Of a DNA stretch of 64,000 nucleotides, positions 12,571 to 62,591 are shown piece by piece. This DNA comes from Candidatus Peribacteraceae bacterium (GTDB taxonomy: Bacteria; Patescibacteriota; Gracilibacteria; Peribacterales; Peribacteraceae): NCBI GenBank assembly GCA_028718905.1, contig JAQUKV010000007.1, positions 588 through 64,587 on the forward strand, given 5' to 3'. A program made the translations under genes and the position numbers. The notes beneath the pieces are model-generated. The model searched no databases and was not told the origin of the DNA. It was given only the letters and a program-made list of their open reading frames with translations. Position 1 is the first letter of the stretch, and the number at the start of each line of letters is the position of its first letter.

Positions 12571-12659
12571 GTGGCGAAGGCGGGCTTTGCCTGCCTGGAG
12601 CCACACCTTTTAGGGAAAAGGTGGATCGTGGAGGAAAAACCGCAGGTTTGTCCTCCACG
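12571..12659 (+). ncRNA. Structured-RNA-like element, copy A
   Basis: GTGGC-GAA-[GGCGGGCTTTGCCTGCC]-TGGA-GCCAC-ACCTTTTAGGGAAAAGG-TGGAT-[CGTGGAGGA AAAACCGCAGGTTTG TCCTCCACG]. Confidence 0.6.
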
Positions 12660-20854: not shown

Positions 20855-21790
20855 ATGGCTGAGTGGAGCGTTTTTTGCTACAATACTTTGATGCTCCACG
20901 TTGAAATAGAAATCCCCCATCCGGTCGAGACACTCTTCCTCTTGTTTGCAGCGGGAGGGGTAGTCGTATGGATGACGTGGAAGGTTCCCGGTCAGCAGGT
21001 GCAGGCATCGGTTACTCCCCGTCCGACATCCGCCGCACCGGCGGAGGGTGAAGGCGGACCGGACCGTCAGGCGCGTATGCTCGCGCTTCGGAGCGCCGAG
21101 GATGATGCCCGCCGTATCCGCACCGAGCAGACGGTGCTGTCACAGCGCGAAGAAATCCTGCGCTACGAATTGAAGATCGTGGAGGATGCGGCGTCCCGCT
21201 CCGGCGATGGCGTCTCCATCCGTATCGCGAAAGAGAAACTGCTGTCGCTTCTGGCCGACGAACGCGCGGCCGAAGAGCAGTTCCGGCAGACGTTGCAGGA
21301 AATGTGGGAGGCCGAGGGCCTCTCGGCTACGGTGGCCGTAGGCAGCCCCGGTGACGTGCGCGTGCTCTGGCCCGTGGAGCCCGAGGAGGGCCTTTCCGCC
21401 CTGTTCCTTGATGCGGAGTATGAGAAACGGTTCGGCATTCCTCACCATGCCATCGACATTCCCGTAGCGCAGGGATCCGCGATCCGCAGTGCGGCGGACG
21501 GTGTGGTCGATAAGATCGTCGATAACGGCCTTGGCTACAGCTATATCTTGGTCAAGCACGACGGCTTTGCCACGCTCTACGGCCATGCGAGCGCCTTCTT
21601 CGTCGCGGAGGGTGATCACGTGCGTCAGGGTGACGTGCTGGCGGCTTCGGGCGGTATGCCCGGCACGCCGGGCGCGGGATCACTCACGACGGGACCGCAC
21701 CTGCACTTCGAAGTGATCGTCAATGCAGAGCGCATCGATCCGCTTACGGTTCTTCCGGCGCGTCCGGAGGTGCACCAAGGCCGGTCATGA
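20855..21790 (+). CDS. M23-family peptidoglycan endopeptidase with N-terminal TM and coiled coil
   Basis: HHAIDIPVAQGSAIRSAADGVV...ATLYGHAS...GPHLHFEV. The start could instead be the ATG at 20891. Confidence 0.8.
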   Translation: MAEWSVFCYNTLMLHVEIEIPHPVETLFLLFAAGGVVVWMTWKVPGQQVQASVTPRPTSAAPAEGEGGPDRQARMLALRSAEDDARRIRTEQTVLSQREEILRYELKIVEDAASRSGDGVSIRIAKEKLLSLLADERAAEEQFRQTLQEMWEAEGLSATVAVGSPGDVRVLWPVEPEEGLSALFLDAEYEKRFGIPHHAIDIPVAQGSAIRSAADGVVDKIVDNGLGYSYILVKHDGFATLYGHASAFFVAEGDHVRQGDVLAASGGMPGTPGAGSLTTGPHLHFEVIVNAERIDPLTVLPARPEVHQGRS

Positions 21791-22907
21791 GATGGAATTC
21801 CTGCGCCTGACGGAGGGCATACGCATCCGTCATCCCCGCCACATAGTCCTTGATCGCTTCGGGTAACGTTCCCTGTGTTTTCTGCCGCAGCTCCTTCACC
21901 TTGGGCGGAGGATCTTTTTCGAAGGCGGCGCAGAGCTGCGTGACCGTGTTCCTGCCCTTTTCATTGCATGCCTGTACAGGGGAGCTCATGTAGAGATGAT
22001 CCCAGAGAAAACTGCGAAGCTGCGCGAGCTTCTGCTCCATTGCAGCGGAGAAGTGCGCGAGAGGGCGCGACGTATGCACGACGTCCTGCACTGTCCGGAT
22101 TGCTTGTGACGCGAGAAAGTTTTCTGTCGTGGCATAGAGATCCGTGACGAGCAGGTGAATGAGAGAGCCTCGCAGAGATGTTCCGCGAGCTTTCGATCGC
22201 TCTGCCGCCTCGCGCGCCAAGGGGATCCGTTGAATTGCCTTGAACGAAAAGAGTTTGGCGCCGAGGCCGTCGTCGCAATCGTGTGCGGTATAGGCGATCT
22301 CGTCGGCCAGATTGACCACGTGCGCCTCCAACGACGTTCCCGGCGGCAGCAGGACATCGGCGGGCGCGTCATGCGGTGTCTGATGCTTCTTGAGGCCTTC
22401 CAACACCTCACGGTTCAGGTTGAGTCCCGCAAAGAGCGACGAGTGCTCCTCCAGTACCGTGACGATCCTGAGTGATTGCTCGTTGTGCTCGAAATGCGCA
22501 CCGTGTTTCGTCATGAACACATTCAATGCTTCCTCGCCGGTGTGGCCGAAGGGCGGATGCCCCAGGTCGTGCGCGAGGGCGATGCATTCCGCAAGATCTT
22601 CATTGAGGCCGAGGGTTCGCGCGATATCACGGCTGATCTGCGCCACTTCCATGGTGTGCGTGAGGCGCGTACGGACGTGGTCCGAACCTCCGGCGACGAA
22701 GACCTGCGTCTTCCCCTTGAGCCGGCGAAACGACTGCGTGTGGATGATGCGGTCGCGGTCGCGCTGAAAGGGGAATCGGGTTTCATCTTCCGGCTCCTTG
22801 ACGCTTCGTCCCAGCATTCCCTCGTGCGGCACCGCGTAGGGGGCGAGGAGGGCATCGGCCTGCTTCATTCGTTCGGCGAGTGGGAGCATGAGAGAATCAG
22901 TGTACAT
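21744..22907 (-). CDS. dGTPase-like HD-domain triphosphohydrolase
   Basis: FQRDRDRIIHTQSFRRLKGKTQVF and RLTHTMEVAQISRDIA...AHDLGHPPFGH. The start is ambiguous (22907, 22890, or the ORF-track start at 22997). The 3' end overlaps the convergent M23 gene by 47 nt. Confidence 0.85.
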   Translation of the reverse strand: MYTDSLMLPLAERMKQADALLAPYAVPHEGMLGRSVKEPEDETRFPFQRDRDRIIHTQSFRRLKGKTQVFVAGGSDHVRTRLTHTMEVAQISRDIARTLGLNEDLAECIALAHDLGHPPFGHTGEEALNVFMTKHGAHFEHNEQSLRIVTVLEEHSSLFAGLNLNREVLEGLKKHQTPHDAPADVLLPPGTSLEAHVVNLADEIAYTAHDCDDGLGAKLFSFKAIQRIPLAREAAERSKARGTSLRGSLIHLLVTDLYATTENFLASQAIRTVQDVVHTSRPLAHFSAAMEQKLAQLRSFLWDHLYMSSPVQACNEKGRNTVTQLCAAFEKDPPPKVKELRQKTQGTLPEAIKDYVAGMTDAYALRQAQEFHLMTGLGAPPDAPEEP

Positions 22908-23267
22908 CTTTCTGGGTTTCTTCTGCTGGAGGACCGGATTTTCCACCCTTTTCCGGCGAAAAGGGTGGAGCCCAAACGCCGGCGCGCCAATCCCCACTCC
23001 GCCCGGCCATGTGCCTCCTCACCGATGCCTCCAAGGATTCGGCATCGTCTCGTCGGCGCGTACCGCTCTTGAGCGGTGCAGGGCCTTCCCCTTCACCCCC
23101 GATGGCGCGCCCCCGCCCACAAAGTTGAGAATGCATTGAGGTATGCATCGCGAAGTTATTTGTGCCTCTGGTCATGGATCGAACACACATACAACTAACA
23201 AAACAGTCCGCCGTCGGTATGAAATAATCCGTGCCGAAGCGCTGGTTTCGCAAAATTAAAATAATCC

Positions 23268-23361
23268 ATCGCGAACCCCGCACGTGGCTATCGGGGTGGA
23301 GCGATACCTCTAAAGGGAAAGGATGGTTCATGGAAGGAAAACCGTAGGTTTGCCTTCCATG
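23268..23361 (+). ncRNA. Structured-RNA-like element, copy B
   Basis: ATCGC-GAA-[CCCCGCACGTGGCTATCGGGG]-TGGA-GCGAT-ACCTCTAAAGGGAAAGG-ATGGTT-[CATGGAAGG AAAACCGTAGGTTTG CCTTCCATG]. Confidence 0.6.
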
Positions 23362-23550
23362 CCGAACAGCCGTTGAGCAGGGACGCTATGCTCCTGGGTA
23401 ACCAGGTGGGTGGCCGCATCCTCCGACCACGGTCGGGGGAGAGTAGGCCTCCCCTAGAGCACTTGAGGAGAAACGTACCGGCTCTGACGTGCCGTCCAGA
23501 CGATGGGATTCTAGCGACGAGGATGGAGGATTGCCATGCAGCTCTTCATA

Positions 23551-23650
23551 GAGGAAAGAGAAGAAGGAAAAGAAGAAAAGGAAATAAAGGAGAATGGTCG
23601 TGACCTCCCTCTTTTCTTTCTTTCCTTTCCTCTATTTCCTTTCATTCTTC
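23551..23650. repeat. Purine-word / pyrimidine-word imperfect hairpin
   Basis: GAGGAAAGAGAAGAAGGAAAAGAAGAAAAGGAAATAAAGGAG followed by CTCCCTCTTTTCTTTCTTTCCTTTCCTCTATTTCCTTTC. It abuts the pgeF stop codon. Confidence 0.6.
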
Positions 23651-24336
23651 TATTTCTTTTCATTCCTGTTCAAGAGGACACATGCCAGCACATTCGTCCC
23701 TCCATTTCTCACCGCTTCCCGGTCGCCTCCCCTGTACGTCCAGTACTTTCCGGGGTTGCAGCACGTGCAGTCCGGCGAGCGTTCAAAATGATCCGGAGGA
23801 AGCCCGAGTTTCAACAGTTGCGCGTCCGCCGCGCCGCGCAGATCGACATTTTTTCCTGCAATGAACTCCGGCGGGATCGTCGGGAGCTCGCGCTCAGAAT
23901 CGCTGAATCCCGCGCACTTTTGGCAGAGCGACGGTCCGGCAGCTACATAAGTTTCTTCCGGATCGATATCCCATTCGTTTTTCAGTGCTGCGAAGAACGC
24001 GGGGATCGCTCCGGCATTCAGTCCGCGCCAGCCGGCATGCAGCGCGCCGAGAACATTTTTTTTGGGCGCGTAGAGAACGAATGCCTGACAGTCGGCCCAC
24101 CGCACCGAGAGCGCGAGACCGGTGTGATCCGTCACAAGTCCGTCAGCATCGGGTGCGTATTCCACGGCGCCGCGTGCGATGACAGTCTTCGCTCCATGTA
24201 CCTGTTCGGCGGATGCCGCACTCTTCACTCCGAGTGTCCCGCAGATATCGTGCGGCTGGTGATCCTTTTTCTTCCACATCCCCACGATCAGGCGGTCGCG
24301 AAACGGCTCGAAGAGGGAGAAGGGAGAACGGTTCAT
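23650..24336 (-). CDS. pgeF: Peptidoglycan editing factor PgeF (YfiH/DUF152, laccase-domain protein)
   Basis: 228 aa. WADCQAFVLYAPKKNVLGALHAGWRG and a C-terminal CTCCNPGKYWTYRG. Confidence 0.8.
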   Translation of the reverse strand: MNRSPFSLFEPFRDRLIVGMWKKKDHQPHDICGTLGVKSAASAEQVHGAKTVIARGAVEYAPDADGLVTDHTGLALSVRWADCQAFVLYAPKKNVLGALHAGWRGLNAGAIPAFFAALKNEWDIDPEETYVAAGPSLCQKCAGFSDSERELPTIPPEFIAGKNVDLRGAADAQLLKLGLPPDHFERSPDCTCCNPGKYWTYRGGDREAVRNGGTNVLACVLLNRNEKK

Positions 24337-50265: not shown

Positions 50266-50363
50266 ATCGCGAAGCGCGGGTCTCGCGGGTTCCCGCGCTG
50301 GAGCGATTCCTCTAAAGGGAAAGGAGAGTCCATGAGGGGAAAACCGTAGGTTGTCCCCTCATG
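50266..50363 (+). ncRNA. Structured-RNA-like element, copy C
   Basis: ATCGC-GAA-[GCGCGGGTCTCGCGGGTTCCCGCGC]-TGGA-GCGAT-TCCTCTAAAGGGAAAGG-AGAGTC-[CATGAGGGG AAAACCGTAGGTTGT CCCCTCATG]. Confidence 0.6.
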
Positions 50364-51393
50364 CATAAAAGGCTATGAAGTGAAAGATACGGCGGAGGGA
50401 CAGAAGGTACGAAAACTATAGTTATTCTTTTTGATGCATCGGGAATCGTTGTCTCGTTGAGTGGAGAACTGATTGGTTTCCTCTGTCCTTTCTTTGCCAA
50501 GCGCGGCAAAGAAAGGACGAAAGAAAGCGCTGCGCCTATGAACCCCTCCGCTATCGCCGCCACATAGGCGCGTTTCCGGAAATTTTGTTGGCTGTTTTGT
50601 TTCCGCATCCGATTTTGTTTTTGTGGGCGTTCTTCTTCTTCACCTTTGTTCATTCAGCGCAGCCATTGAAAACAGGTACCTTCATTAAGGAAATTTAAAG
50701 GGAAATGTCAGGTCAATAAAACGTCGTGTTAAGGCGGCCGAACGGAAAAAGAGCTTTACCAACACATATTTCCTATACATCAAGGTGGTTTTTTACCCAC
50801 TTTCCGGAGTGAGTAAGCCTATTTTCTCTTCAATTCTCTTAAGAGAAATTGGCAATAAGTGCCTTTTGAGCCATCAATTCCGGAACGTTCCGGCAGAAAT
50901 GACCCTGTAACACTCCCTATTCCTCCCCGTTTGACCCAATGCACGGATCCGTGCGAGATCTTGCAGCTTCCTGCAGATTTCCATAGGATCTCCGCGATCC
51001 GCCTTCCTCGAGGAAAGGAAAGCGAGATCCGTGTATACGCCCTTTGACAAATCGGCGCCTTGCCTTTGTCCCGCGTATGCGGGACGAGACAAGCTTCACA
51101 CCTTGCTTTCCTTTTTATAGGGAAGGACAGGTCGTGTTCCTTCAGTGGCCGTCGAACCCTGGAAAGGATCTCCTTGGCCTCGTGACACCTCTTTATATAT
51201 AAGGAGAAGCCCCGCACTTTTGCGGGTTCATGTGGATGAATGTAAAAGCATCCGCAAGAGCGCGGGGCGTTCTCGCACACAAGAGCGCAGGGGGACAGGT
51301 AACGAGTCACTACCCACAATCACTTTCATACCATCATCGCATTTCCTCATTTCCTCATTTTTCGGTCTTTATTTCCTCTCTACTCCATACCTT

Positions 51394-57497: not shown

Positions 57498-58097
57498 ATG
57501 CCCTACACCCTTCCCAAATTACCCTTCTCGTTCGACGCCCTGGAGCCGCACATCGATGCCCGAACGATGGAGATTCATTACGGCAAGCATCATCAGGCGT
57601 ACTGCGATAATACGAACAAGGCACTCGCCGGCACGCCACTTGCAGAAAAGCCGATCGAGGAAGTTCTGAGGAACCTCGAAGCCGTTCCCGACGACAAGCA
57701 AATGGCCGTGCGGAATCACGGCGGAGGATTCGCCAATCACAACATGTTCTGGTCGGTCATGGGTCCGAAGAGCGCAGGACCCGCAGGTGCTCTTGCCGAT
57801 GCACTCAAGAAATCTTTCGGCTCTATCGACACTTTTCGTGAAAAGTTCGAGGCGGCGGCACTCGGCCAGTTCGGGTCCGGATGGGCGTGGCTCGTCAGGA
57901 ACGGGGACAAGCTCGAAGTGATGAATCTGCCGAATCAGGATTCGCCCCTTTCCATTGGTACGGTGCCGCTTCTCTGCCTCGATGTGTGGGAGCATGCGTA
58001 CTACCTCAAGTATCAGAATAGGCGCGCGGAGTATGTGAAGGCTTTTTGGAATATGGTGAATTGGGAGGAGGTGGCAAGACGGTTTGAGGGCAGGTAA
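57498..58097 (+). CDS. Fe/Mn superoxide dismutase
   Basis: [35 protein letters not shown]...[15 protein letters not shown]. Confidence 0.95.
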
Positions 58098-58218
58098 AGA
58101 AGGTCATTGAGGTAAGGGAAGTAAGGAAGGTGGGAGGCACTGAAGATAGTGAGGGATATGTATAAGCCACATTCTTTACCTTCAATTCCTTCCTGACCTT
58201 CTTTACCTTTCCCTGCCC
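58088..58218. repeat. Purine-word / pyrimidine-word long hairpin (terminator position)
   Basis: GGTAAAGAAGGTCA (58093-58106) pairs perfectly with TGACCTTCTTTACC (58194-58207). The inner arms are made of GGTAAGGGAAGTAAGGAAGG-type words. Confidence 0.7.
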
Positions 58219-62398: not shown

Positions 62399-62591
62399 GT
62401 TCCCGACGCTCTATCCACTCATGGAGCAATTGCCACGCGGGACGAGGAGTCGAACGGGCAAGACCTGCTCTTCGGCACGGATTATTGCGAAATTGCTTCG
62501 CGATGGATTGTTTATTCCTGCTTCGCGCGAAAGGAAAATGGAATGTGCGCCCCGAAGTCCGTTGTCCGAATCCCGCTGTCCGAAACGGGGC

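Follow-up and report, generated by a model that had tools for sequence, protein, structure and literature searches.

A Probable, Divergent 6S RNA Gene of a Peribacteria Bacterium in the Gap between pgeF and an HD Phosphohydrolase Gene, Adjoining a Structured Interspersed Repeat

The Locus and Its Neighbors

The window, i.e., the entire 64,000-nucleotide stretch of DNA analyzed here, derives from the 1.42-Mb genome of a Peribacteria (CPR/Patescibacteria) bacterium, and its source stretch was found only in DNA metagenomes, from landfill and wetland, and in no RNA run. An earlier note on this DNA had drawn attention to an ORF-free gap between a pgeF gene and a dGTPase-like gene, both assigned to the minus strand, and had proposed that the gap holds an independent structured RNA gene. 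Pfam confirms both neighbors and their orientation, the gap is real, and the proposal of an RNA gene holds in that a 6S RNA gene very probably lies there. The features of the region, in ascending order of coordinates, are as follows:

21744-22907 (ORF extending to 22997), minus strand: HD/HD_assoc (dGTPase-like) phosphohydrolase gene, the downstream neighbor (Pfam PF01966, PF13286)
22950-23125, no strand assigned: family-2 structured interspersed repeat (16 copies, covarying stems), followed by an 11-bp hairpin
23223-23251, no strand assigned: truncated second copy of family 1, comprising its A/T-box and P1 end (inverted match to 62458-62486; alignment by eye)
23255-23361, no strand assigned: copy B, a family-1 interspersed structured repeat of about 110 nt, whose long hairpin (23329-23361) adjoins the 3' end of the 6S RNA
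23362-23501, minus strand: probable 6S RNA gene (ssrS), conserved core of about 140 nt (RF00013 match, covariance model R1, BLAST conservation, covariation)
23388-23407, minus strand: central bubble of the 6S RNA, 3' strand, 20 nt, with the small hairpin CCUGG-UUAC-CCAGG at 23393-23406 (consensus structure)
23408-23453, minus strand: terminal (apical) stem-loop, including the CCGACC/GGTCGG hairpin (consensus structure, covariation)
23454-23471, minus strand: central bubble, 5' strand, UCUCCUCAAGUGCUCUAG, 18 nt (unpaired in the consensus and aligned to the central-bubble columns of RF00013)
23472-23497, minus strand: closing stem, 5' strand, pairing with 23364-23387 (consensus structure mapped onto the window)
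23508-23537, minus strand: promoter-like site with a -35 box ATGGCA (23537-23532), an 18-nt spacer and a -10 box TAGAAT (23513-23508) (promoter scan)
23548-23635, no strand assigned: purine-rich/pyrimidine-rich inverted repeat, its arms 26 nt long, lying after the pgeF stop codon and before the 6S promoter
23650-24336, minus strand: pgeF-type gene (Cu-oxidase_4), the upstream neighbor (Pfam PF02578, E 3.6e-35; syntenic in relatives)

At the downstream boundary, the ORF of the HD gene encodes 417 residues from a GTG at 22997, and the alignments of its orthologues begin at residues 31-42; the gene probably starts at Met31 or Met37, i.e., at the ATG at 22907 or 22889. Hence, the gap is probably longer than had been stated. 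The first 30-36 codons of the ORF (22889-22997) share sequence with the family-2 repeat and its hairpin, and the orthologues do not conserve them.

At the upstream boundary, the inverted repeat at 23548-23635 folds on the minus strand with -37 kcal/mol (z -1.68) and is possibly the terminator or 3' hairpin of pgeF. Intergenic hairpins with similar purine- and pyrimidine-rich arms of 26-42 nt are seen at this position and at 58092-58208, and such long hairpins may be a lineage-specific kind of terminator. The matches of microRNA, snoRNA and similar Rfam models to 23540-23666 fall on this purine/pyrimidine hairpin; they are low-complexity, lie far under the cut-offs and were set aside.

A Single-Copy RNA Gene Related to 6S RNA

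At gathering thresholds, Rfam recognizes only two tRNAs in the whole window. The cmscan for 6S RNA suggested in the earlier note identifies the gene: in a permissive Rfam scan of the gap, RF00013 (6S/SsrS) aligns over its full length to 23355-23504 on the minus strand with 32.4 bits, which is below its gathering threshold of 46.4 bits (E-value 1.1e-4 in the gap search and 4.3e-5 in the genome search). By that note's own account, a match to the model of a known housekeeping RNA, whichever the strand, would refute its reading of the gap, and the 6S match is of this kind.

The Rfam score alone would not carry the 6S call, since a match that we judge to be due to chance scores slightly higher elsewhere in the same genome (34.9 bits at G000:C15:10181-10351, corresponding to L029:1501-1671). 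This second match lies inside long uncharacterized ORFs without a Pfam match and does not adopt the rod fold (z -0.14). It is not seen by the lineage-specific model described below, and has no counterpart among the 6S matches of five genomes of the same genus. It is also unconserved: among 30 genomes from the family's other genera, three gave matches, all of them short fragments.

The identification is instead carried by comparison across genomes. BLAST against relatives delimits a single-copy core of exactly 23362-23501, kept in 19 of 24 genomes of the same family down to about 70% identity. Of the relatives' 39 loci, taken as one set of 19 and another of 20, RF00013 matches 32 (16 in each set) at the orthologous site, with 28.7-52.8 bits and always on the strand equivalent to the minus strand of the window. 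Four of these orthologues exceed the Rfam cut-off (L018 with 52.8, L047 with 50.9, L036 with 48.9 and L037 with 46.8 bits), and the window copy is homologous to these orthologous loci by both BLAST and the lineage-specific model. Further, in each of the five same-genus genomes the orthologue is the sole RF00013 match.

The lineage-specific covariance model, R1, combines the copy in the window with those of 16 relatives, 17 sequences in all. On the window it matches 23360-23503 (144 nt) with 159 bits. It finds exactly one copy per genome and matches all eight further genomes of the same family; beyond the family, it extends to four other families of the class (8/8 genomes of f10, 2/2 of f15, 1/1 of f14 and 1/4 of f4). 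With ends taken from sequence only, the length of the RNA is thus put at 140 nt by the conserved core and at 144 nt by the R1 match, for a test range of about 150-200 nt. RF00013 has 187 positions, and the window RNA of about 140 nt is shorter, with part of the terminal stem absent. In two relatives the homologue is about 200 nt long (L025, 1363-1562; L039, 1501-1704) by virtue of an insertion of about 55 nt, which in the model alignment seems to fall within the terminal stem or the loop region.

Taken together, we are confident that positions 23362-23501 on the minus strand are very probably the ssrS gene for the 6S RNA of this Peribacteria bacterium. The gap is full of structured repeats, and one might accordingly see in this stretch another member of an interspersed repeat or a structured but non-functional sequence. 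Given its single-copy state in every genome, its synteny, and a conservation across families that is accompanied by compensatory changes, this reading is hardly credible.

The Predicted 6S Fold and Its Covariation

The single sequence folds no better than shuffled sequences, whether read on the minus strand (z -1.28) or on the plus strand (z -0.72). Hence, the sequence by itself decides neither whether the domain is real nor on which strand it lies, and the reality of the domain is established by the comparative evidence. When 40 homologues are aligned with the model, 94.6% of the cells at paired positions are indeed paired, as against 39-46% with slid partners. Compensatory changes on both sides are found in 35 of the 42 pairs, and none of 500 shuffles reaches the observed values. 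This 40-homologue alignment is fitted to the model, which favors the structure; RNAalifold on an independent MAFFT alignment of 17 sequences recovers the same architecture, with 13 compensatory pairs.

As modeled from these alignments, the fold is the 6S rod: the closing stem opens into a large central bubble, whose 3' half bears a small hairpin, and beyond the bubble lies a terminal stem-loop. The helices of the closing stem (1-5) comprise 21 pairs, 20 of them with compensatory changes. At the tip of the terminal stem, all nine pairs of helix 7 (CCGACC/GGTCGG) are changed on both sides. The CCUGG/CCAGG helix of the small hairpin is paired in 98.5% of instances across the 40 sequences, and next to it, in the 3' strand of the bubble, CACCCACCUGG agrees letter for letter with the Rfam 6S consensus. 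By analogy with studied 6S RNAs, the opposite strand of the bubble (23454-23471) is the presumed template region for the product RNA.

The hairpins that the earlier note had read from the plus strand can now be placed in this architecture. Its GNRA-capped CCTGG-GTAA-CCAGG (23393-23406) is present in the sequence as described and corresponds to the small hairpin borne by the 3' strand of the bubble; likewise, CCGACC-AC-GGTCGG (23423-23436) is present and forms the tip of the terminal stem. The arms of GGGGAG-N7-CTCCCC (23436-23454) also exist in the sequence, but in the covarying structure they pair with other partners. Similarly, the complementarity between CATCCTC (23417-23423) and GAGGATG (23519-23525) is there, but as a long-range pair it falls outside the conserved fold.

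Strand and Promoter

Three indications fix the RNA on the minus strand, namely the strand of the Rfam matches, a conserved -10 box, and a large excess of G·U over A·C cells when the 40-sequence alignment is read on that strand (204 as against 20). Correspondingly, the share of cells that pair is 94.6% in the minus-strand reading and 83.4% in the plus-strand reading. The promoter scan returned one site in the region, the minus-strand site listed above. Of the 40 homologues, 38 have a TANNNT box whose end lies 2-7 nt before the model start, relative to a background of 6.4% at arbitrary positions, and many homologues also have a TTG-type -35. We therefore propose from these sequence patterns that the 6S gene probably has its own sigma-70-type promoter, with transcription starting just downstream of the -10 box TAGAAT. 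Several low-GC relatives carry a T-run on the 6S strand immediately after the closing stem.

These observations bear on the reading advanced in the earlier note, in which a plus-strand RNA of about 250-300 nt, antisense to both neighbors, runs from copy B through 23362-23540. The palindromic hairpins can form on the plus strand too, and the minimum free energy there is similar (-74.6 kcal/mol); moreover, G·U pairs in the long hairpin of the copy-B family are commoner on the plus-type strand (12 vs 4), and an A/T-rich -10-like stretch precedes the copy-B element on that strand. Nevertheless, every Rfam and R1 match is of the minus type, with antisense R1 matches at three loci reaching only 21-23 bits, and both the G·U to A·C ratio and the conserved -10 box point the same way. 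Further, conservation breaks off precisely at 23362, the point at which copy B begins, and at least 24 further sites carry copy B but lack the domain: copy B is a separate repeat that adjoins the 3' end of the 6S RNA and is not continued by it. The GAGGATG arm (23519-23525), for its part, falls in the spacer that separates the -35 box from the -10 box, outside the RNA and its conserved core, and this spacer is unconserved in relatives. The antisense reading is thus very improbable; the RNA is co-oriented with its neighbors and about 140 nt long. Hence, what we describe is a divergent and short but ordinary housekeeping gene that standard annotation misses, and not a new antisense RNA.

Gene Order and the Relationship to the HD Gene

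The order pgeF, 6S and HD gene, all co-oriented, is kept in most genomes of the same family, and in many relatives the HD gene begins only 14-50 nt after the RNA. One relative (G006) has a motif, TTCTCTCATG, at the HD start codon that pairs with CATGAGAGA directly after the 6S RNA.

Such a conserved position directly upstream on the same strand, with an ORF following at 14-50 nt in many relatives, is what one might look for in a cis-acting 5' leader of the HD gene, attenuator- or riboswitch-like, that resembles 6S RNA without being a trans-acting regulator of the polymerase. In this genome, however, repeats totaling about 470 nt lie between the RNA and the HD start codon. Homologues found by the model also persist in genomes in which the HD gene is not adjacent, as in G023 and in G009, where the next gene is an M23 peptidase gene of opposite orientation; at the 6S loci of the other families, a search for the HD gene gave no match. 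Thus, the RNA is probably not a mere leader of the HD gene. Four of the homologues, as noted above, even exceed the Rfam cut-off for 6S RNA. We accordingly regard the leader reading as improbable. The linkage itself is no argument against 6S RNA, since the E. coli 6S RNA is likewise co-transcribed with a downstream gene, being processed from an ssrS-ygfA transcript. On the favored reading of a 6S RNA gene, the length of the gap is explained by the inserted repeats and not by an RNA of 250-300 nt.

Interspersed Repeats at the 3' Side of the 6S Gene

Copy B belongs to family 1, a repeat whose stems covary and whose loops are conserved and which numbers at least 24 full copies in this genome; those in the window include 23255-23361, 50294-50378 and 12571-12659. 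Its hairpin of about 15 bp has the loop CCU-R-CGG. A linker rich in purines (AAGGGAAARG) follows in its sequence the 5' arm of the hairpin, and a two-helix P1/P2 unit with covarying stems completes the element. In some copies, the loop of the hairpin is interrupted by nested insertions. In family 2, the repeats are about 150-170 nt long, and seven of the 16 copies in the genome lie on contig 4 in one orientation. They have a covarying outer stem (GGCGCGCC...GGCGCGCC) followed by a T-run, a conserved loop CCGAAKCCUUGGAGG on a covarying hairpin, and one variable hairpin.

The long hairpin of copy B begins where the closing stem of the 6S RNA ends. This 6S-then-repeat arrangement recurs in six of eight other same-genus genomes sampled and, beyond the genus, in two genera (G075, and partially in G023); G018 shows a partial match that is weaker and lies farther downstream. 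In 12 of the 24 family-1 copies, a frame of 129-677 codons on the 6S-equivalent strand ends just before the hairpin, the distance from its stop codon to the hairpin being 1-4 nt in eleven copies and 11 nt in one. This is the position expected of a terminator or a 3'-end stabilizer. The clues to the strand of family 1 are in conflict: placement after stop codons points to the minus strand, whereas the G·U bias of the long hairpin (12 vs 4) favors the plus strand of the window.

One may envisage from these arrangements a lineage-specific 3'-end system, in which the copy-B family serves as a terminator or 3'-protection module. The 6S RNA would then be matured from a 6S-repeat-HD transcript; alternatively, the repeat would encode a convergent small RNA and share its hairpin with the 6S RNA as a two-way terminator. 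We put this forward tentatively, as a possibility that we think is rather less than even.

A Plausible Mode of Action

Briefly, we advance the following scheme, the steps of which are drawn from the established 6S RNAs of E. coli and B. subtilis. As growth slows, the RNA would mimic an open promoter and fill the active-site cleft of the holoenzyme formed by RNA polymerase with the housekeeping sigma factor. The RNA would be released as the polymerase used the 5' strand of the central bubble to template a short product RNA. Six sigma-70-family proteins are encoded in the genome, and hence the presumed target of the 6S RNA exists. By the same analogy, the 6S gene would be expressed and its RNA would bind the polymerase. 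The hairpin of copy B probably terminates the primary 6S transcript or protects its 3' end; alternatively, the 3' end might be generated by processing the 6S RNA out of a longer transcript that also includes the HD gene.

Implications

An apparent new antisense RNA thus becomes a known housekeeping gene, and its distribution suggests that the Peribacteria and several sister families of these ultra-small CPR bacteria keep a 6S RNA. Across the 101 sampled genomes of the class, RF00013 reaches its cut-off in four and gives sub-threshold matches in 24. Routine annotation therefore misses the gene, with the cut-off being passed in so few genomes. Our literature search returned no substantive link of 6S RNA with CPR/Patescibacteria; the one co-occurrence was in an unrelated SRP paper. 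The lineage-specific model and its alignment can be used to annotate the 6S gene in these genomes. Further, the pgeF-6S-HD arrangement and the repeat at the 3' end offer concrete handles on transcript ends in them.

Comparison with Known Systems

The window RNA resembles the 6S/SsrS family (RF00013), typified by E. coli SsrS and by 6S-1 and 6S-2 of B. subtilis, in aligning with the full length of the model and in its three-part rod. It also shares the model consensus CACCCACCUGG on the 3' side of the bubble, the presence of one copy per genome and a sigma-70-type promoter. The gene context is comparable too: E. coli ssrS lies just upstream of the co-oriented ygfA, and the window 6S gene likewise precedes a co-oriented protein gene. 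The downstream partner is nevertheless different, being an HD phosphohydrolase and not a 5-formyl-THF cyclo-ligase.

In contrast to the 184-nt E. coli 6S RNA, the window RNA is only about 140 nt long, with a shortened terminal stem. It further departs from the family in its sub-cut-off Rfam score, both in this genome and in most relatives, and in that its 3' end adjoins a lineage-specific interspersed repeat. A short 6S RNA has a parallel in another phylum, where that of Aquifex aeolicus, at about 158 nt, is compact and has the same three-part architecture.

As for the repeat, the REP/BIME elements of enterobacteria occur in many intergenic copies, each with a stable hairpin that closely follows the stop codon of the gene before it, on that gene's strand. 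The copy-B family is comparable in its intergenic copies and post-stop hairpin, and a role as a 3'-end stabilizer or terminator is plausible for it. It differs from REP/BIME in being about 110 nt long and in having three helices, conserved loops and covarying stems.
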